From contig CAVQFQ010000021.1 of NCBI GenBank assembly GCA_963711835.1, positions 160,001-224,000 on the forward strand: 64,000 nucleotides of DNA, read 5' to 3'. Both the position numbers and the translations under genes were made by a program. The stretch is from an uncultured delta proteobacterium. Lineage in GTDB: Bacteria; Desulfobacterota; RBG-13-43-22. Shown here one piece after another: positions 545 through 11,543 of the stretch. The notes below the pieces were generated by a model. It ran no database searches and was not told where the DNA came from. It saw only the letters and a program-made list of their open reading frames with translations. Position 1 is the stretch's first letter. Each line of letters begins with the position of its first letter.

Positions 545-889
545 CTACTTCAAACCCGACTTGGCCGCTTCTTTTTCATACCAGAGGGAAAAGGCATACA
601 TACCCAGAAAACGCTCGTCTTCTTCCATGATGCCCCGGCACATCTCCCAGGCCCCCTGTCCAAAGGCATTGCTGTAACTCGAGGCGTCGCAAGTCGTTAA
701 GAAGGCCCTGGTCAATTCCATGGCGGTCCGTTTTAATTTACCACGGCGCAAATCAATGGGATCCTTGGGCTGCACAAAGGGATCCCAGATCTCATACCCC
801 TTTCTCCGCACCCGTTCCTGCACCCTGGGGGACATGCTGTCAAATATGGCCTTCTTTCTTTTTTCCTCTTCAGGGGTCAACTGGGCCAT
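545..889 (-). CDS. Small hypothetical protein, third gene of YcaO-YkgJ operon
   Basis: 114-aa ORF, SD AGGAGG upstream, 14 bp after the YkgJ stop. Confidence 0.8.
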   Translation of the reverse strand: MAQLTPEEEKRKKAIFDSMSPRVQERVRRKGYEIWDPFVQPKDPIDLRRGKLKRTAMELTRAFLTTCDASSYSNAFGQGAWEMCRGIMEEDERFLGMYAFSLWYEKEAAKSGLK

Positions 890-903
890 CGGGGTGCCCT
901 CCT

Positions 904-1551
904 TTATTCCAAGCCAAAGTATGTTTCATTATAATCGGTCAGCAGACTGGTGGAGAGGGGAACCAGCTCGATCGCCTTTTGAGGATCGGCCGCCTGGATT
1001 TCCTCCAGCAAATCCCTGGAAAGGACCAAGAGGCGCTGATGAAGTCGGTCCATATTGACCGTGGGATAGGAGACCCCCTGGGTGAAACCCGACCGGCCGC
1101 AGGTAAACCCTTTCCCTTGAATGGAGGTCGGAAGCCCATAGACCCTGCAGGTCAGGGGCCGGTGCTCATAGAGATCACAGAGATCCCTGTCGTTGAGAAA
1201 GGGGCAGCGGATCCTTTCCTCTGCCAGGCGGCTCAGCACCTCTTCCTCCCTGGCCCCCTCCTGGGTCATCATCTTGTGAACTTTGCGTTTTAACTGATAA
1301 AATTTTCTATCTGCCCTTTCGGCCCTCTCCAGGATCTGCTCCTGCTTTTCCTTGGTCAGGCCATGGAAAAAATGAAGATTGATATAAACGGATTCGATCA
1401 GAGAAAGGTCAAAAACGGCCTGACAACAGTCGGCACATTGTTCCCGACAGAGAAAATTCTCGGGATAGTCAGCCTTTACCCGAGAGGTGAGGCTCTCTAA
1501 CTGGTTGACGAAGGCCTCGTATTTTCCAAAAGTCTGTGAGTAATCCAACAT
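904..1551 (-). CDS. YkgJ family (CxxCxxCC) cysteine-cluster protein
   Basis: CREQCADCC, RCPFL...CDLYEHRPLTCRVYG motifs. Confidence 0.9.
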   Translation of the reverse strand: MLDYSQTFGKYEAFVNQLESLTSRVKADYPENFLCREQCADCCQAVFDLSLIESVYINLHFFHGLTKEKQEQILERAERADRKFYQLKRKVHKMMTQEGAREEEVLSRLAEERIRCPFLNDRDLCDLYEHRPLTCRVYGLPTSIQGKGFTCGRSGFTQGVSYPTVNMDRLHQRLLVLSRDLLEEIQAADPQKAIELVPLSTSLLTDYNETYFGLE

Positions 1552-1602
1552 CCGCGTTTTCCTTCCTGCCGCTTCCTTTTTTGGCCCGGGGTTTGGACGA
1601 CC

Positions 1603-3357
1603 TCAGCTTTTTGAGGGCGGTTCTTCCTGCCCGACCATCAGGCCGAGTTTGGCCAGGTTGTCCCTGGCAAAATCAAGAGAAGGATCCAGTTCCAGGGCCA
1701 TTTGATACAGTTTGACGGCTTCCCGGTAGAACCCCAATTCCCTTAGGTTGGACCCTATATTGGCATAATCGATGCCGGATCCGGGATCGATCTCGATGGC
1801 CCGCTCGAAGGCTTCGATGGCTTTATGATGGTCCTTTAATTTATAATAACAGAAACCCAGGACATTATGGATTTCTTTCTGGGCTTCATTATACGATTTG
1901 GCCTGATCCAGGTAGGGAAGGGCCTGACGGTATTCGCCCATATCTTTAAGGCAGACGCCGATATGGCAATAGATGCTGCTCAGATCGATATCCCTTGGAT
2001 TCAACTCCAGGGCCTTCCGGAAGTGGACCAAGGCCTCCTGCGGCCGATCCTGGCGCTCCAGGGCATAGCCCAGGAAGAAGTGGACTTCGTAACGTTCCGC
2101 GAAAAGGGCCTCCATCTTTCGAAGCTCGCTGACCGCTCTTTCCGGATCTTCCAGCATGGAAAGCAACTTAACCATGTGGAAAAGCACTCCCGTATGCCGG
2201 GTCCGGTCACGGAAATGGGCCCCCGGGATAATGGTATAGACGGCCGGTATTCCCAACAGAGGATGGGTCACATTGACGATAAGGACCTCCAACCCTACCC
2301 GGGCCAGGGCTTCGCAGCAGGCTTCAATTTCCAGCCGCATATTAGGGTGGGCCAGATCAGGCAATTCATTCAGGGCAACGATCTTCGGAGAGGTCATAAC
2401 ATACCGGGCTTCTTCCAGATTCCGATATTTCGGCAACGTGGGGCGGTACTGGGTCCGGTTGATGAAATCACCGGCCAACTGGGCGATCTCCGTTACAGCC
2501 CGGATCAACGATTTAGCCGGACTGGTAGTGGTGCCGGCCGTGAAGACGATTTCACTTTTCTCCGGGAAAGTGGCCGGATCATAGGCTAGAGACCCTACCG
2601 TGGGAATCCCGGTATCCAGTGAAAAATCCTTCAGGAACAGCTTGATTCCCAACCGGTCGAATTTCCCGATCAATTCTCCGGCAACGGGATCAGTTACGGA
2701 AGCCGGATCGATTGAGGGGGTCAAAAGGAAGTCATGGCTGATGACCGAAGAGACATGCCGCTCCACCACCTCGCACAGGCCCTGCAGGATGGCTTCTTCC
2801 AGGGTATTGCCGGCTGAAGGGCCGTTGTATTCGTGAATCAGATAAAACCACTGGATCGGGACCAGGACATCCTTTTTACGGGTCAGATTATAAGCCCAGA
2901 CCCAGTTAAGAGGCATCTGATCATAAACTTTCCTCAACTGCGGCAACTCCGGCGACCGGTCGTAAAAAGACAGGGCCAGCGAGTCAAAAGGCAAGGCCCG
3001 CTCACTGACGGCTTCATAGCGTTCCTCAAAAAAAGGGGCCGTCTTGATAAAATGGAAGAAACTGAATCGTTCCACCAGTTCCATAAGGGCGCTGGCTTCC
3101 GATTGTTCGGCCGTTCCCCCCTTTCCCATCTGTTTCTGAGTCCCTATGACTTCAACGGCATCCTTCCCGCAGCGACTGATATAAATGGGGATGTCTAATC
3201 GTCCGCTGTCGATCCGGAGGGTTTCTTTGAGGATATCCAGGTCAACCATTTTTAACTTGGCCCGTACCCGGGCAATGGTCTCCCGGGGATCAGCGGCTTT
3301 TTCCTGGTCGTAGGTATAGCTCTTAAAACTGTCTTTTAACAGGATTCCTGATGACAT
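1603..3357 (-). CDS. YcaO-family ATP-dependent enzyme with C-terminal TPR domain
   Basis: QMGKG, SALMELVERFS, NGPSAGNTLEEAILQGLCEVVERH YcaO motifs; last ~150 aa are TPRs; start placed at MSSG behind SD GAGGGGG. Confidence 0.9.
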   Translation of the reverse strand: MSSGILLKDSFKSYTYDQEKAADPRETIARVRAKLKMVDLDILKETLRIDSGRLDIPIYISRCGKDAVEVIGTQKQMGKGGTAEQSEASALMELVERFSFFHFIKTAPFFEERYEAVSERALPFDSLALSFYDRSPELPQLRKVYDQMPLNWVWAYNLTRKKDVLVPIQWFYLIHEYNGPSAGNTLEEAILQGLCEVVERHVSSVISHDFLLTPSIDPASVTDPVAGELIGKFDRLGIKLFLKDFSLDTGIPTVGSLAYDPATFPEKSEIVFTAGTTTSPAKSLIRAVTEIAQLAGDFINRTQYRPTLPKYRNLEEARYVMTSPKIVALNELPDLAHPNMRLEIEACCEALARVGLEVLIVNVTHPLLGIPAVYTIIPGAHFRDRTRHTGVLFHMVKLLSMLEDPERAVSELRKMEALFAERYEVHFFLGYALERQDRPQEALVHFRKALELNPRDIDLSSIYCHIGVCLKDMGEYRQALPYLDQAKSYNEAQKEIHNVLGFCYYKLKDHHKAIEAFERAIEIDPGSGIDYANIGSNLRELGFYREAVKLYQMALELDPSLDFARDNLAKLGLMVGQEEPPSKS

Positions 3358-3430
3358 GTTTTGATCCCCCTCTTTACCTAAGCTCCCCATAAATTCATCA
3401 CTACCAAAGAAGCACTTTACCTAAATTAAC

Positions 3431-5601: not shown

Positions 5602-6852
5602 TTAAGTTCCGCTTTTAACCCAAGAGGGCAAAATGATCCCACCCTCGGTTCTTTTTTCAGGGGCGGCCTCCTCGGCCGCTTTTTCCGACTCTTCCGGCAG
5701 GAGCGATTTTCCAACCAGCCAGGATAAAAAAGGATTTTCCTTCCCGGAAGACCTATCTTCTTCGGCCGTTAAAGAAGAAGCGGTTTGAAAAAGGGATACG
5801 GCCTGAGTCCTTTGGTTTTTCAGATAATAAAGATAAGCGGCCTCCTCCAGAAATCGTTTCAGCCTTTCTATTTCCTCTTTCGGGAACAATTCCCGGACTG
5901 CCTTCCGGACGATCTCCTGGATTTGGTCCCGCTTCTGGGCCTCGCTCAGGATCAAGACGCTTTCCTTGACCCGTTTGATCTCTTCCAGAAAAGGCCCGGA
6001 TTTCTCCGGGTTCAAGGAAAAATAAAAAACTTCCGGAATAAGGCTTAAAACCGAGGGATCCGGGAATTCCCCAGAGTCGGGGGCCTGCTCCGAGAAAAGA
6101 GTTGTTCTTAAAGGAAAAGGCCGAACCTCTCCGGCCTTCTCGATAAAACCCATTACGGCCTCAAAGACCTTCTCATCCTCCACAGAGAGTTTGGATCCCT
6201 GCTGATGAGCCTCTTTTATAAGAAAGGCCAAGTGCCCGGCATCGGCCGCTAAGAACGGTTGCCCGACCCCTTCTTCCATCTCTCGTAAAAGCTTCCTGGC
6301 TTCTTTTTTACTGGCCTCCATGGCCCTCACATCCTCAAGACCCCCCTGAGAACCGATGAGGGCGAAGGTGAAGATCCGTCCTCCCTGAGGTTGGGGAAGG
6401 AGTAGAGCTGCCATCCGGCTGCCGGACCCGTCATATTCTGAGATATGCCCTTCCATGGGAACTGGAGGAATTTCCTTTAAGATTCCGCGCCTGTTTCCCT
6501 CTGTTTTCTCCTCATGGAACTGGACCTTTAAGCCTTTTTGTCTAAGTTGATAGAGTGCCCGCCGGATTATTTTTTGAACACCCTTTTCGGAGATCTCGCT
6601 CTGGAGTCGAAGTAACTGGTTGATGGTCCATTCATCGGGCTGGGCTGTGAAACTCTGGAAGAAAAGTTCCGCCAGCAAACGGTCCGACTCCAATTGGTGA
6701 GCTATTTGGCTCAGGGCGTCAAAGGCAACACCCTCCCGCCCATCTTCCGATCTCAGGGTTTGGATAAAGGCGCTGACCTTCCCCAAACGAAGAGAGTCCG
6801 TTTCCTTGGCCTTCTGGTTAAGGTTGGTCTTTACTGAAGAGACCATAGACAT
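5602..6852 (-). CDS. Hypothetical protein (416 aa)
   Basis: Long ORF with normal composition; no recognised motif. Confidence 0.8.
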   Translation of the reverse strand: MSMVSSVKTNLNQKAKETDSLRLGKVSAFIQTLRSEDGREGVAFDALSQIAHQLESDRLLAELFFQSFTAQPDEWTINQLLRLQSEISEKGVQKIIRRALYQLRQKGLKVQFHEEKTEGNRRGILKEIPPVPMEGHISEYDGSGSRMAALLLPQPQGGRIFTFALIGSQGGLEDVRAMEASKKEARKLLREMEEGVGQPFLAADAGHLAFLIKEAHQQGSKLSVEDEKVFEAVMGFIEKAGEVRPFPLRTTLFSEQAPDSGEFPDPSVLSLIPEVFYFSLNPEKSGPFLEEIKRVKESVLILSEAQKRDQIQEIVRKAVRELFPKEEIERLKRFLEEAAYLYYLKNQRTQAVSLFQTASSLTAEEDRSSGKENPFLSWLVGKSLLPEESEKAAEEAAPEKRTEGGIILPSWVKSGT

Positions 6853-6940: not shown

Positions 6941-7009
6941 AAAATAAAAAGCCGGCTTGTTTAAGGCCGGCTTTTTAAGAGGAAAGGAGAAAAAGAGATT
7001 TTTTGTTGC
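6941..7009 (-). ncRNA. Putative sigma54-dependent small RNA (~68 nt) with CU-rich anti-Shine-Dalgarno segment
   Basis: Lies between a consensus -24/-12 promoter and an intrinsic terminator, has no ORF, contains CUUUUUCUCCUUUCCUC. Confidence 0.65.
6946..6976. terminator. Intrinsic (bidirectional-type) terminator
   Basis: AAAAAGCCGGC-N9-GCCGGCTTTTT. Confidence 0.85.
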
Positions 7010-7019
7010 TTCTCTTTAC

Positions 7020-7036
7020 TGCAAGCATGGTGCCAA
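7020..7036 (-). promoter_or_regulatory. sigma54 -24/-12 promoter
   Basis: Minus strand TTGGCACCATGCTTGCA matches TGGCAC-N5-TTGC. Confidence 0.85.
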
Positions 7037-7063
7037 ACTGGAAGTTGCGAGGCCTTCCCTATC

Positions 7064-7076
7064 TAACATCATGATT
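7064..7076 (-). promoter_or_regulatory. IHF-like site
   Basis: AATCATGATGTTA, one mismatch to WATCARNNNNTTR, about -55 to -67, with AT tract upstream. Confidence 0.5.
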
Positions 7077-7131
7077 TTTATAATTAATTTTAATTTTTAG
7101 GCTTATCCTGGTTGTTTATTGCGTCTCTGAA

Positions 7132-7151
7132 AAGTAAAAATATTTTTACTT
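7132..7151. promoter_or_regulatory. Putative enhancer (UAS) for the adjacent NtrC-family activator
   Basis: Perfect 20-bp palindrome AAGTAAAAATATTTTTACTT about 130 bp upstream of the predicted start. Confidence 0.55.
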
Positions 7152-7240
7152 AATTAAAAGGTCACTGGGCTTTAAACGATATAACAGTTTAAAATAATTA
7201 AAAAATTTCATGTAAAAAATTTTAGCCTCCTTATCCGGCT

Positions 7241-8608
7241 TCAGGAAAGATTATATTTCTTTATCTTATATCTCAGCAGGTTCTTTTCAATCCCCAGGAG
7301 TTCCGCGGCCCGGCTTTGGACATAACCGGATGCCGTCAGCGCCCGGGTTATCATCTTTATTTCTATCATTTCAAGGACCTCATTTAATTTGGCCCCGGCC
7401 GGAATAAATCTTTCCGTCAGCCATTCAGGATCGACGGAGGACTTCTTCCCTAAAGGCAGGTCTTCCGGCCGGATGGACGGACCGGAATGGAGTATAACCG
7501 CCCTTTCCAGCATATTTTCTAATTCTCTGATGTTCCCGGGCCAGTCATACGTCAGCAGCCCTTCCATCGCCTCGGGAGATAAACGCGGGACCTCTTTCCT
7601 GTTCATTTCCCTTGAGAATCGTTCCAGGAAATAGCGGATAAGCAGAGGCAGGTCTTCCTTCCTTTCTCTAAGGGGAGGAACCTCTATGTGAACCACGTTC
7701 AAGCGGTAAAAAAGGTCCTCCCGAAAGTTGCCCTTGGCAATTTCTTCTCTCAAATCCTTGTTGGAAGCGGCCATGACCCTTACATCCACCTTGATGGTCT
7801 TGTTGCCTCCCACCCGCTCGAATTCTTTATTTTGAAGGACCCGGAGCATGGTCACCTGAACCGAGGGAGACATCTCGCCTACTTCATCCAGAAAGAGCGT
7901 GCCCTCGTTGGCCAATTCAAATCGTCCCTTACGCTGGCTGACCGCCCCGGTAAAGGATCCCCGTTCATGGCCGAACAGCTCGCTTTCCAGCAGGGTTTCG
8001 GTTAAGGCCGAACAATTGACCGAAATAAGGGGCTTGTCCTTCCGGTCGCTGCTGAAATGAACGGCCCGGGCCACCAGTTCTTTGCCCGTACCCGACTCCC
8101 CGGTGATCAACACCGTAGCGCGGGTACCGGCCACCTTGGCGATCAGATCCCGGACTTGTCTCATGGGCAGACTATTCCCCACCAAATCGGTGGGGCCGAA
8201 TTTTTCCTTCAGTTCCTTGGAGAGCAGCCGGTTTTCCTTGATGATTCGGCCCAGGGCCAGGGCTCGGGCAATCGTTTTCTTTAAGACCTCATTGTCAAAG
8301 GGTTTGGTGATATAATCGGAAGCCCCTTTTTTCATGGCTTCAACGGCCTTTTCCACCGTCCCGTAAGCGGTCATCATGATGACCGGAAGGTGGAGGTCTC
8401 TCTCTTTCAAGAGGCTGAGCAATTCCATACCGCTCATGGCCGGCATTTTCATATCGGTAATAACCAGATCCAGGTCGTTTTCCTGGATGAGGCTCAAGGC
8501 TTTCGAGGCCGATTGAGCGCTCAGGACTTCGTAGCCCTCCTCCTCGAGTAATTCGGTCAACACCAAAAGGTAATTTTTTTCATCATCGACCACTAAAATG
8601 GTTTCCAT
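7241..8608 (-). CDS. sigma54-dependent response regulator (NtrC/AtoC family)
   Basis: REC domain, GESGTGKEL, GSFTGA, FREDLFYRLNV, WPGNIREL, C-terminal HTH. Confidence 0.95.
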   Translation of the reverse strand: METILVVDDEKNYLLVLTELLEEEGYEVLSAQSASKALSLIQENDLDLVITDMKMPAMSGMELLSLLKERDLHLPVIMMTAYGTVEKAVEAMKKGASDYITKPFDNEVLKKTIARALALGRIIKENRLLSKELKEKFGPTDLVGNSLPMRQVRDLIAKVAGTRATVLITGESGTGKELVARAVHFSSDRKDKPLISVNCSALTETLLESELFGHERGSFTGAVSQRKGRFELANEGTLFLDEVGEMSPSVQVTMLRVLQNKEFERVGGNKTIKVDVRVMAASNKDLREEIAKGNFREDLFYRLNVVHIEVPPLRERKEDLPLLIRYFLERFSREMNRKEVPRLSPEAMEGLLTYDWPGNIRELENMLERAVILHSGPSIRPEDLPLGKKSSVDPEWLTERFIPAGAKLNEVLEMIEIKMITRALTASGYVQSRAAELLGIEKNLLRYKIKKYNLS

Positions 8609-8672
8609 CTTCTTAACACCTTCGTCACATTCGTTGCTGCTGCCTGGTCTTCTTTTCCGAAGGGGAAAGAAA

Positions 8673-10094
8673 TTAGACCGGCCTTTCCCTGGGCAGGGTC
8701 AGTCTGATCAATACGCCACTCTTCTCCCCCAACATCATTTGGATCTGGCCGCGATGGGCCTCAATGATATTCCGGACAATCGGCAAGCCCAGTCCGCTGC
8801 CCTTTTCTTTCGTGGTATAGAAAGGATCAAAGGCCCGGTTCAGTGCTTCCGGGGACAATCCTGGACCGGTGTCACTGATCTCCACCTGCACCTGCCTCGG
8901 TTCATAGCGGACCTTAATCCCGATGGTCCCCCCCTCCGGCAGGGCCTGAAGGGCATTGATAAAAATATTTAAAAAAGCCCGGTAGAGAAGATCCTGGTCG
9001 GCTTCTACCGGTTGGGAATGGGCTTCTGAAAAATCCTTTTCAACACCGATCCCCTGCCGTTCCAATTCAGGGCCCAGGAAATTTAAATTTTTTTCCAGGA
9101 TGATTTCGATCCGAATCGGGGCATAACGGGGCACCTGAGGCCGGGCGAAATCCAGGAACTCGGTTACGATCCGGTTTAGACGATCGGCCTCTTCTCGGAT
9201 GACCGAGGCCAGTTGGTTCCCGGGATCGTGTTGGGCGACCTTTCTTTCGAGCAATTCGGCGGTACTGCGAATAATCCCCAGGGGGTTTTTTATTTCATGA
9301 GAGACCGAGGCAATCATTTCTCCCAGGCTGGCCAAGCGTTCCGCCTGATGCAGTTTGGCGACCAGACGTTTTTCGCCTTCGGCCCGCTTGGCCATTATCA
9401 CCTCACCCCGTTTTACAATAAAGAGCAGTATGAGGTACAATAAAGCCATGAGGCCGATGGAAATCAGGACCATCAGATATTGGTCCCGGATAATCTCCTC
9501 GTAATCATCGGAAATATTCTGGGTGATTTCAAAAACCCCCAAGATCTGGCCGGTGGGCTTATAGGCCGGACTCTCCACCCGGAAAGAAATGGTGGTGATC
9601 AGCTTTCGGACGGGCGTCTCTCCCCAGGTCGGGATGCGGAAAGACACATCCTCCGAAAGCAAACGGGAAGTATGCCGGCCCTGGGCGGCCTTTTTAAAGT
9701 CGGTCCCCCCCAGATTTTTTTTCCCCACCAGGGAGCGCTCCGTACTGTAGGCCAGGACATTGGATAAGTCATAGATATTGACCTTCTCAATCTTAAAGCT
9801 GTGAATGGTATTCCGGACGATCAGGTCCAGAACTTTGAATTGCTCGGGGTCCCGGAGCTGCACCTTTCCAATCCGCACCGTGACGGGCAGGACGAAATTG
9901 AAAAAAACCTGATGGTTAAGATTTTCCGCCAGCAAAAGAGCGAAGGATTCCGTCTTCTTTAATAAAGCCTCCTTGGAGCGCTGGGTGATGATAAAGGTCA
10001 GGGAGACGGCAAAAAGCATCATCACGATGAAACTACTCAAGAAAAAATACTTGACCAGTTTAAAGGGCTTGACGTTTTCCGGTAACATTTCCAT
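8673..10094 (-). CDS. Membrane sensor histidine kinase
   Basis: 2 TM segments, SHEIKNPL H-box, DTGPG, FYTTKEKGSGLGL. Confidence 0.95.
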   Translation of the reverse strand: MEMLPENVKPFKLVKYFFLSSFIVMMLFAVSLTFIITQRSKEALLKKTESFALLLAENLNHQVFFNFVLPVTVRIGKVQLRDPEQFKVLDLIVRNTIHSFKIEKVNIYDLSNVLAYSTERSLVGKKNLGGTDFKKAAQGRHTSRLLSEDVSFRIPTWGETPVRKLITTISFRVESPAYKPTGQILGVFEITQNISDDYEEIIRDQYLMVLISIGLMALLYLILLFIVKRGEVIMAKRAEGEKRLVAKLHQAERLASLGEMIASVSHEIKNPLGIIRSTAELLERKVAQHDPGNQLASVIREEADRLNRIVTEFLDFARPQVPRYAPIRIEIILEKNLNFLGPELERQGIGVEKDFSEAHSQPVEADQDLLYRAFLNIFINALQALPEGGTIGIKVRYEPRQVQVEISDTGPGLSPEALNRAFDPFYTTKEKGSGLGLPIVRNIIEAHRGQIQMMLGEKSGVLIRLTLPRERPV

Positions 10095-10103
10095 AGCGGT
10101 CGG

Positions 10104-11543
10104 CTAACTCAGATACTTCTTTCTGGATTTGGTGTACGGCCCCCACTCTTTGACTTTATCCTCGTAGCCCTTCCTCCCCAAATAGGCATAGGCCAGATTC
10201 TTGCCTTCTTCAACCCCGGGCTGATCCAAAGGATTGATCCCTAGCAGATGACCGCAGAGGGTGGTTTCCAATTCCCAGAGCATCATCAGTTGTCCAACCG
10301 TAAAGGGATTCACTTTGGGCAGCATCAAGGTCAGGCTGGGGCGCCCGCCTTTCACCAGGGTCAAACGGGTCGCCAGCATTTCAGCTTGAATCAATTCATT
10401 GAGGCTGTGGCCCCCCAGATAGGAAAGGGCTTCCAGCTTGGGATAGAGCTTGGGCAGGGATAGCAGGTTGACATAATGCTTTACCCCCACAAAGGTAAAA
10501 ACCTTGTCCCCGGGTCCTTCATGATACAACTGGAGCTGGGAATGTTGATCGGTGGCCCCCAGGGCCACCAGCGGAGTTTGTCCGGTCCAGACTTCTTTTC
10601 CTTTGGTATTCAACTTTTTTCCCAGGCTCTCGGCCCAAAGCTGACAAAACCAATCTCCTACACCTTTCAGGGCATCGGCATAGGGCATGACCACCCGGAT
10701 ATTTTTTTTCTTCTGTTTATAGACCAGGGTGGCCAGGGCAGCACAGAGATAGGCCGGGTTCTCCCAGATCGAATCGGTCCGGCAGCGTTTTTCCATCTCC
10801 CGGGCCCCGGCCAGCAATTCTTCCAGATCGATATCCCCCATGGCAGCGGGCAGCAGCCCCACGGCCGAAAAAACCGAATAACGTCCGCCCAGTAAGGGGT
10901 GGATCTCGAAACTCTGGATCTGTTCCTCCCCGGCGATCTTTCTCAGCACCCCTTGTTCCGGATCGGTGGTGATGACCAAGTGTTCCTTTTCTTTCCGGTT
11001 TCCAAGACGTTTCTTAAGCAAATCCCGGATGATCAAGAACTGGCTCATCGTTTCCGCTGTGCCCCCGGATTTACTAATGACATTAAAAAGGGTCTTTCTA
11101 ATATCCAGCAGGTCCAGCAAGGCCTTAAAGCCGTCCGGATCGATATTGTCGGCCACAAATACCCGGGGGAAACCCTTCCGCATGGTCTTGGATAATAAAT
11201 TATAATGGGGGTGGTTGAGGGCCGTCTGCAGGGCCTTGGCCCCGAGGGCCGACCCGCCGATCCCCAGAACGACAAAATTTTCAATCCAGTTTTTATTTCC
11301 TTGAACGAAACTTTTGATCCGGGGCGCTAAGGAGGAATCATAAGGAAGGGTTAAGAAAGGAAGTTGCCCCTGATCTTTTTTCTCCTGAATCTCTTGCCGG
11401 ATGGCCTGGAGGGCGGGAATCAAATGTTCAATTTCCTCCTCGGCAATCCCCTCTTTTTCCCCTAATAAAGGGCTCATCATAAAATTGACATCCAGGGCCA
11501 ATCTCATCTCTTGAACCCAATTTGGATCCATCCAGCGTTTCAT
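10104..11543 (-). CDS. pgi: Glucose-6-phosphate isomerase
   Basis: GIGGSALG, SKSGGTAET, GGRYSV, QLWAESLGK, DQPGVEEGK. Confidence 0.95.
   Translation of the reverse strand: MKRWMDPNWVQEMRLALDVNFMMSPLLGEKEGIAEEEIEHLIPALQAIRQEIQEKKDQGQLPFLTLPYDSSLAPRIKSFVQGNKNWIENFVVLGIGGSALGAKALQTALNHPHYNLLSKTMRKGFPRVFVADNIDPDGFKALLDLLDIRKTLFNVISKSGGTAETMSQFLIIRDLLKKRLGNRKEKEHLVITTDPEQGVLRKIAGEEQIQSFEIHPLLGGRYSVFSAVGLLPAAMGDIDLEELLAGAREMEKRCRTDSIWENPAYLCAALATLVYKQKKKNIRVVMPYADALKGVGDWFCQLWAESLGKKLNTKGKEVWTGQTPLVALGATDQHSQLQLYHEGPGDKVFTFVGVKHYVNLLSLPKLYPKLEALSYLGGHSLNELIQAEMLATRLTLVKGGRPSLTLMLPKVNPFTVGQLMMLWELETTLCGHLLGINPLDQPGVEEGKNLAYAYLGRKGYEDKVKEWGPYTKSRKKYLS

Follow-up and report, generated by a model that had tools for sequence, protein, structure and literature searches.

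The locus studied here raises a question of output: what does a sensor kinase and sigma54 activator pair control when the sigma54 promoter behind its genes runs almost directly into a terminator? We analysed a stretch of 64,000 nucleotides (the window) of contig CAVQFQ010000021.1 from an uncultured delta proteobacterium. A sequence-only reading had proposed that the output is a trans-acting translational repressor RNA. Sequence comparison supported this proposal and supplied a specific predicted target, the mRNA of an outer-membrane porin. The best reading, with a probability of roughly 0.8, is that this two-component system acts mainly through a sigma54-dependent small RNA (sRNA) repressing porin translation.

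Anatomy of the locus

Table 1. Features of the sRNA unit and the genes upstream of it, in window coordinates.
Feature	Position	Strand	Remarks
pgi (glucose-6-phosphate isomerase)	10104..11543	-	PF00342; first in the conserved block of pgi, kinase and activator; given for context
Sensor histidine kinase, 473 aa	8673..10094	-	Periplasmic domain, then HisKA and HATPase
Sigma54 enhancer-binding response regulator, 455 aa	7241..8608	-	Receiver-AAA+-HTH_8, GSFTGA loop
Distal degenerate enhancer site	7212..7227	-	11/16 consensus matches; 78 bp upstream of proximal site
Proximal enhancer palindrome, predicted activator site	7132..7151	.	Profile built from relatives
IHF-like site	7064..7076	-	Same position in 12/22 family units
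Sigma54 -24/-12 promoter	7020..7036	-	Sole full TTGGCAC-N5-TTGCA match of the genome; conserved
Predicted sRNA without ORF, about 64-69 nt	6941..7009	-	Sequence and fold; predicted +1 at 7009
Single-stranded CU-rich seed	6979..7000	-	Complementary to the porin mRNA leader at two sites
Intrinsic terminator	6941..6976	-	Hairpin 6976-6946, A-tract, U-tract to 6941; likely bidirectional

The elements that the sequence-only reading had placed on the minus strand were all found there (Table 1): the kinase and NtrC-type activator genes upstream, the palindrome, the IHF-like site, the sigma54 box, and a spacing of about 68 nt between promoter and terminator. The distal enhancer site had been missed. 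The gene order pgi-kinase-activator was kept in most loci of the family, and rpoN was found in the source genome. In the kinase, the periplasmic domain, a putative sensor, lies between two hydrophobic stretches whose windows begin at about 13-20 and 205-215. The N-terminal 240 aa were present in 130/401 genomes of the phylum, and the Atlas lead for this region was sCache_3_2, covering 20% of one cluster. Searches with the sensor domain found no PDB relative and no plasmid match. The signal is most likely a periplasmic or outer-membrane cue.

We compared these elements with chance expectation. The full promoter motif occurred once in the 3.9-Mb genome and the shorter TGGCAC-N5-TTGC eight times; within the window the promoter pattern was observed once against 0.11 expected, and 10 of 100 shuffles reached one. 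Perfect palindromes of at least 20 bp numbered 27 in the source genome, which makes a palindrome weak evidence when taken singly, and the IHF-like motif was at chance level when taken alone (4 occurrences, 3.6 expected). What supports these two sites is their conserved position and not their rarity, the IHF-like one being a candidate. The proximal palindrome was also the top genome-wide match of the profile built from relatives, with 24.2 bits compared to 17.3 for the runner-up.

The predicted RNA has no ORF and contained no AUG, GUG, UUG or GGA. Its 73-nt fold had a z-score of -4.0 and left the 5' half single-stranded, which bears out the unstructured CU-rich tract. Two stem pairs of the terminator carried compensatory changes in the source genome. 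The hairpin has a loop of 9 nt and was not listed by a terminator scanner with a limit of 8. We rejected an opposite-strand small protein, as the frames there had just 4-18 codons and were unconserved. No Rfam 15 family, Pxr, Qrr, MicA and RybB included, matched above its gathering threshold (best 27.4 bits against a cut-off of 54, E 1.8), Rfam covariance models gave no match on 10 related loci, and a literature search found no paper on the sRNA unit.

Conservation of the unit

Promoter, CU tract and terminator were kept together in 20/21 family genomes, compared to none for a control pattern; conservation behind orthologous regulators had been suggested as a check on the RNA. The exception, G007 (90% complete), lacked both the unit and a kinase orthologue, and it retained the porin site though no sRNA was detected. 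Among the 22 family units, 13 lay directly behind the activator and nine were detached yet had both enhancer sites. The palindrome pair was present in 20/22 units at about -190 and -112, with a spacing of 76-79 bp, and the IHF-like match in 12/22 units at -39 to -42. The enhancer motif spans 16 bp and reads GT-W-M-AA-N4-TT-K-W-AC. Since the palindrome occurs almost only at the sRNA unit in this family, the sRNA is probably the main output of the two-component system. Another enhancer-like site, which precedes a PII gene (G000:C10:187293) and is accompanied by a sigma54 box, was set aside as probably not bound by this regulator; it overlaps a DVU1949-type nitrogen motif.

Similar units were found in 14 families of the phylum, and a related enhancer motif also occurred in other families. 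There, the unit lay directly behind 21 of 48 activator orthologues, and additionally at loci L129, L131 and L135; for the remaining 27 no unit was found directly behind. A search that ignored the seed (enhancer plus TGGCA) gave 18 matches in 16/101 genomes, with one in the control, and 15 of the 18 ran on into a -12 box, CU seed and hairpin. Units were absent from the interval between the kinase and activator genes, apart from one in L384 that lies upstream of the activator. Loci sought via the activator mostly returned non-orthologous activators. In genus g44 no unit was found; relaxed-pattern matches in 13/21 of its genomes looked like coding sequence or chance, and controls were similar in size. 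All of these counts come from genomes related by descent and are not independent. The unit that follows this conserved sensor-activator gene pair of sulfate-reducing bacteria and their relatives holds no gene and likely produces a regulatory RNA of about 69 bases.

Complementarity of the seed to porin mRNAs

In the source genome, the predicted target is G000:C17:341256, whose predicted fold and Atlas features mark it as a porin. A single-sequence fold reached a pLDDT of 31 only, so a 12-sequence alignment was used instead; the resulting model (pLDDT 80) matched DcaP, Omp38, PorB and OmpF in Foldseek. The protein matched no Pfam or NCBIfam porin model. Its mRNA leader has two sites complementary to the seed. 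The first lies some 30-40 nt ahead of the start and offers 13 contiguous pairs; the second, over the Shine-Dalgarno site, offers 14 pairs with one bulge. This porin ranked 8/3509 for seed against Shine-Dalgarno region, 77/3509 by its best single site and 3/3509 by two sites. A genome-wide duplex ranking allowing G-U pairs, which was dominated by noise, did not place it among the best 45. Complementarity was weaker here than in most relatives, and 7/18 foreign porins paired equally well with the RNA.

The seed differed between families, and its complement was the ribosome-binding site and start of the porin gene of the same lineage; the longest uninterrupted Watson-Crick match had 25 pairs. In a pairing matrix, the own family's porin was the best on average in 8/8 families compared, and in 25/33 genomes no foreign-family porin paired as well; the porin had been chosen by seed match in 10 of these 33, which makes that part circular. 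In a blind set, 0/37 foreign porins paired as well as the own one in G293 and 2/37 in both G186 and G317. Among porins found by profile, G214 (14/37) and G313 (35/35) were misfits and G158 (9/37) fitted partially. The f1 porin profile found homologues in just 2/23 foreign genomes and a second profile in 7/15.

Searches with each genome's own seed gave perfect matches at porins in G095 (a 23-mer), G125 and G289, while the best non-self matches in G362 and G059 were porins and G264 perfectly matched a G289-type seed. In G384 just one other match fell within two mismatches, a perfect 21-mer where a signal-peptide gene begins; the contig end cuts this gene off. In G185 the perfect match lay at a non-porin gene and the own porin matched with one mismatch, and no porin target was found for G210, G053, G402, G336, G238 and G313. 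A prediction test in f41, a family whose Desulfovibrio-like label is inferred, found detached units in 3/5 genomes, and the seeds matched perfectly over 16 nt to porins found independently by NF033939. Targets in f41 passed the NF033939 cut-off and those in f56, f39 and f71 matched below it. G463 had a 15-nt match. A start-site pattern, tuned after the porin leaders had been viewed, gave 24 distinct matches in 17/21 family genomes, of which 17 were this porin family and two other beta-barrel-like proteins. Across many families, the match between seed and porin has shifted along with the porin itself.

Alternatives and proposed circuit

The strongest rival, which we regard as improbable though worth weighing, is that the RNA is real and acts as a broad anti-Shine-Dalgarno regulator, in which case the porin would be a single target among many and, in the source genome, possibly not the chief one. 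The seed does pair with many purine-rich starts, several genes of the source genome rank above the porin when single-site energies are compared, and further matches include rplK, S1-like, transketolase-like and HU-like genes (names read from translations). However, these extra matches were not common to several genomes, whereas porins recurred in every tested family with a match, and in f95, f56 and f80 the pairing reached the start codon of the porin and the first codons after it.

It is very unlikely that the RNA binds a protein as a CsrA-type sponge, or stabilises the porin message instead of repressing it. Hfq (PF17209) was found in 0/5 genomes tested, two of them single-contig, whereas 5/14 controls were positive, which leaves room for another cofactor; however, the RNA lacks the GGA motif, and the pairing covers the Shine-Dalgarno site and in many cases also the start codon, as is usual for repression. 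Slightly less probable still is that the 416-aa gene at 6852 is expressed from the sigma54 promoter by way of a leader or attenuator, or that the hairpin is a mere operon terminator, with no free sRNA: a homologue of this gene comes next in 13/22 family units and longer folds show the CU tract alternatively paired with downstream sequence, but the next gene differs in the other nine (an opposite-strand ORF in seven), next genes are unrelated in other families, G446 has six tandem copies of the unit, many units carry a -35-like box (TAGACA/TGGACA) in the interval from the terminator to the next gene, and a terminator has no need of a conserved upstream seed. This leader alternative, raised in the sequence-only reading itself, fails because the unit is often detached from the activator or faces a convergent gene.

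For the sRNA acting on porin mRNA, we propose the following circuit. Phosphorylation of the activator by the kinase is likely, as is binding of the activator to the two palindromes, which would turn on transcription of the RNA of about 69 nt. The CU-rich seed would then pair with the ribosome-binding site of the porin mRNA, presumably independently of Hfq, and less porin would be made.

The D. vulgaris pair DVU3221/DVU3220 is probably orthologous to this kinase and activator, and is alike in gene order (pgi being DVU3222), GSFTGA loop and wide conservation. The orthology is probable and not settled, because the DNA-binding domain matching our activator is labelled DVU3305 in file 2 of PMC4641369; a table in the portion of that paper available gives DVU3305 as GAFSGA with a different motif, and a swap of labels is possible. 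In the portions available of PMC3333781 and PMC4641369, DVU3220 is a putative nitrogen regulator, a role that is guessed, with one EMSA on DVU1231, no DAP-chip data and no motif. DVU3221, DVU3220 and rpoN were flagged essential in both transposon libraries (part of PMC10102598, Suppl. Table 5), so that why sigma54 is essential in D. vulgaris becomes directly testable. We supply a motif, promoter, RNA and target, all predicted, for a response regulator that is among the two best conserved in Desulfovibrio. The unit also offers a clear case, phylum-wide, of an sRNA seed that shifts as its target does, although the cells yielded no Hfq in our searches, and points to control of outer-membrane permeability in sulfate reducers. 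More speculatively, and with clear doubt on our part, a phylum-wide Hfq-free sigma54 circuit might be the Desulfobacterota answer to the sigmaE/MicA-RybB arm, with the sRNA capping outer-membrane porin load and loss of the circuit explaining the essentiality of DVU3221, DVU3220 and sigma54. If so, less porin expression, or the sRNA expressed from another promoter, should rescue their deletion. On this speculative reading the activator may also act directly on porin promoters, as L480 and L488 have an enhancer-like site immediately before porin-like genes.

Vibrio LuxO/Qrr1 has the order kinase, sigma54 activator, then sRNA. MicA, RybB, MicF and MicC pair through a short seed with the translation start of outer-membrane protein mRNAs, and the enterobacterial porin-repressing sRNAs need Hfq and are under the control of sigmaE or sigma70 regulators. 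A seed complementary to a porin mRNA translation start is the trait that our RNA has in common with MicA, RybB and MicF; unlike those RNAs and MicC, it combines sigma54 and a dedicated activator with long, near-perfect pairing that shifts with the target, and Hfq was not found. NcS25 of Burkholderia likewise uses a short seed on an outer-membrane protein mRNA translation start (available part of PMC10117139). Myxococcus PxrK/PxrR and Pxr share the layout of kinase, sigma54 activator and sRNA (PMC10217877, in part); Pxr has three stem-loops (PMC5684412, in part), whereas our RNA has a single terminator hairpin. The present RNA also differs from Pxr and Qrr in having a porin as predicted target, and matched neither at Rfam gathering level. 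DseA, a SAM riboswitch/sRNA, was rejected as the same kind of RNA. DVU0799 is the major D. vulgaris porin (PMC5686591, in part), and DESULF_POR1 porins correspond to NF033939; the f41 targets fit this class, whereas the source-genome target matches no porin model.

The closest published systems lie in the same phylum. In the available parts of PMC3333781 and PMC4641369, the sigma54 activators DVU0679, with Dv_sRNA2, and DVU0653, with a downstream ncRNA, target such RNAs. The sites listed there for the four D. vulgaris sigma54 ncRNAs (DVU0653, DVU0679, DVU1419 and DVU2359 regulons) were unlike our motif when compared by eye. DVU0679 and DVU0653 resemble the present system as two-component sigma54 activators with a small RNA downstream of their own gene. 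They differ in activator and binding motif, the same sources name no target for their RNAs, and the unit studied here is far more widespread.

A stand-alone unit behind the kinase-activator pair

All elements that the sequence-only reading had listed on the minus strand behind the kinase and activator genes were found where it had placed them. The 3.9-Mb genome has rpoN and holds a single copy of the full sigma54 consensus. The palindrome and the IHF-like site were each unremarkable alone; the remarkable part was their conserved positions. The predicted RNA folded with an unpaired 5' half and a single terminator hairpin (z -4.0). It lacked GGA and any start codon, which agrees with the earlier claim that it holds no ORF.

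Features of the locus and of related places in the window's genome (G000; C, contigs) and in genome G446
Feature	Location	Strand	Remarks
pgi	10104..11543	-	first in gene order
Kinase	8673..10094	-	second; 473 aa
Sigma54 activator	7241..8608	-	third; 455 aa, GSFTGA loop
Palindrome	7132..7151	-	
IHF-like site	7064..7076	-	
Predicted RNA	7009 to ~6941	-	
Unnamed gene	5602-6852	-	416 aa, no Pfam or NCBIfam match; in the family conserved beside or near the unit, before yjbQ
Gene block	545-3390	-	YcaO-TPR fusion (595 aa), CxxCxxCC-domain protein, small unknown protein
Porin gene	G000:C17:341256-342476		406 aa
Repeat copies	G000:C12:131803, 132678, 134355; C10:46491		four, near-identical, with TGGCAC-N5-TTGC; by appearance a repeated element, not promoters
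Sigma54 box	G000:C11:50299		then A-/U-rich sequence, no obvious early ORF within 110 bases; possible second non-coding unit
Nitrogen cluster	G000:C10:184586-192078		beta-barrel-like protein, amt, two PII genes, glnD-like, glnA
Tandem units (L366)	G446:C161:6112-7406		six promoter-seed-terminator copies ~227 bp apart, N gap; either a true amplification or an artefact of assembly

The first search of the 20 other genomes of the window's family recovered the kinase at orthologue level (E below 1e-130) in 18, and not in G007 and G019. Conservation behind orthologous regulators, which the sequence-only reading had named as a check, was borne out. The promoter-plus-seed pattern (the seed being the single-stranded CU-rich tract) matched 20 of the 21 family genomes with G007 as the single miss, and control hits were 0. 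Upstream of 20 of 22 units lay a pair of palindromes, near -190 and -112 and 76-79 bp from each other, and in the family the fully palindromic form was almost confined to these units (one exception, G016:C46). Alignment of the units revealed variable spacers between conserved promoter, seed and terminator, and two terminator stem pairs were altered on both sides in the window's genome.

We also considered the unit as a leader of the following gene. This gene was a homologue of the gene starting at 6852 in 13 of 22 cases and another in 9, with an opposite-strand ORF in 7 of those 9; the unit itself was directly behind the activator in 13 of 22 cases and detached in 9. Since units are detached and the next genes are varied or on the opposite strand, the leader was ruled out and the unit is a stand-alone gene. 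We put the probability that it is a true sRNA gene at about 0.9. At several loci (L114; L123 in G010 and G014; L128; L226-L230) no activator stood directly behind the kinase, the pair being split in these genomes.

Range across the phylum

The N-terminal 240 residues of the kinase were matched in 130 of 401 phylum genomes. Downstream stretches were fetched for 61, and 48 had an adjacent activator by the filter. A sigma54 box, CU seed and hairpin followed 21 of these 48 activators, in 11 families (one of the 21 was added by eye); no unit was found directly behind the other 27. Three further units lay outside the 48 loci. In f41, a Desulfovibrio-like family (label inferred), the units were detached, and a promoter-plus-TCCTCC pattern found them in 3 of 5 genomes. 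A wider unit pattern matched 38 of 61 genomes, many matches being chance. An enhancer-plus-TGGCA pattern, which holds no seed information, gave 18 matches in 16 of 101 genomes, and in 15 of the 18 a -12 box, a CU seed and a hairpin came next. In total, units were found in 14 families, f1 and f9 included, and pattern searches found none in genus g44. Two units per genome were present in G028 (L129), G019, G018, G488, G425 and G457, with seeds differing in some; these are possibly paralogous sRNAs serving porin paralogues.

Predicted seed pairing with porin starts

Besides the units, the first pattern search of the family gave matches on the reverse strand at the Shine-Dalgarno sequence and start codon of genes that encode a signal peptide and a final Phe; these made up 3 of the 6 distinct non-sRNA places. 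The leader of the homologue in the window's genome has two seed-complementary sites. The protein was modelled as an all-beta barrel (pLDDT 80) matching DcaP, Omp38, PorB and OmpF; the Atlas was in accord with a beta-barrel or porin reading, and no porin model in Pfam or NCBIfam matched. A start-site pattern, tuned after viewing these leaders, found 24 distinct sites in 17 of the 21 family genomes: 17 in this porin family, 2 in other beta-barrel-like proteins and 5 unrelated. The window's genome is one of the weaker seed-porin cases. Depending on which of three measures was used, its porin ranked 8, 77 or 3 among 3509 gene-like ORFs. Of 18 foreign porins, 7 paired equally well with the window's RNA at the SD site. 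Several porin genes of genus g2 and G012 (L176/L199, L191/L213, L173/L200, L188, L222) looked interrupted by frameshifts or stops, from either assembly error or decay.

In other families, each genome was searched with its own seed. Porin or porin-like starts were the perfect or best non-self match in G384, G095, G125, G289, G264, G362 and G059, and occurred with 1-3 mismatches, among other matches, in G185, G094, G155, G058 and G340. The search found nothing in G210 and G053 and no porin in G402, G336, G238 and G313. The f41 porins were located by NF033939, a choice that owed nothing to the seed apart from its 6-nt core, and 15-16 contiguous bases paired in G096, G157, G294 and G463. A pairing matrix was set up with 38 genomes, and 33 were used (the script found no unit in G009, G264, G028 and G446, and no porin start was found in G058). 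Pairing was strongest within the family in each of the 8 families, and foreign-family porins never paired as well in 25 of 33 genomes, with only f1, f41 and f106 being fair tests because 10 of the 33 porins had been chosen by seed match. In a blind set, whose porins had been identified with a profile, G293, G186 and G317 fitted, G158 fitted partially, and G214 and G313 did not fit.

As a working model, the kinase would most likely sense a periplasmic cue (two membrane segments; sCache-like lead), the activator would act from the two enhancer sites to open the sigma54 promoter, and the RNA would occlude the porin ribosome-binding site. Porin repression is the likely mechanism of the sRNA, as predicted from sequence pairing. 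Hfq was not found in any of the five genomes tested, and action without a chaperone would fit the long pairing and the exposed seed. At L480 (G442:C90) and L488 (G424:C1), porin-like signal-peptide genes had the enhancer motif ~70-125 bp before their start and no sigma54 -12 box; the activator possibly controls these porin promoters directly.

Relation to D. vulgaris and known sRNA systems

The kinase-activator pair is probably orthologous to DVU3221/DVU3220 of D. vulgaris. In the available parts of the published sources, DVU3222 is pgi (PMC10920352), DVU3220 has the GSFTGA loop (PMC4641369) and is conserved across all Desulfovibrio examined (PMC3333781). The order and strand of DVU3222-DVU3221-DVU3220 agree with those of the window's three genes. 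Against this orthology, file 2 of PMC4641369 puts the matching DNA-binding domain under the label DVU3305. The accessible portions of PMC3333781 and PMC4641369 give neither DAP-chip data nor a motif for DVU3220, and its EMSA target DVU1231 was picked on a functional guess. In Supplementary Table 5 of PMC10102598, as available, DVU3220, DVU3221, pgi and rpoN carry the essential flag in both libraries, and DVU3305 and DVU0799 do not; the main text seen does not name these genes, and DVU0799 was earlier suggested to be essential (PMC5686591, in part). A polar effect on pgi does not account for the DVU3220 flag, since on the strand this gene comes after the other two. A counterpart sRNA is predicted for D. 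vulgaris. In the nitrogen cluster of the window's genome, ahead of the second PII gene lies a sigma54 box, along with an A/T-rich site that resembles both the enhancer here and the DVU1949 motif; this site may be relevant to the gel shift of DVU1231 by DVU3220 in the literature.

No Rfam family matches the predicted RNA. MicA, RybB and MicF are porin-repressing sRNAs of enterobacteria. Neither the RNA nor sRNA control of porins in the phylum was described in the literature searched, subscription papers being mostly outside reach, including the available text of PMC5686591, PMC11124144 and bioRxiv 10.1101/803072, supplements excluded. The kinase-activator-sRNA layout is known, as the sequence-only reading had noted, from PxrK/PxrR-Pxr (PMC10217877, in the part available). 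The same layout is known for D. vulgaris DVU0679 and DVU0653 (available parts of PMC3333781 and PMC4641369), whose binding motifs differ from the motif found here.
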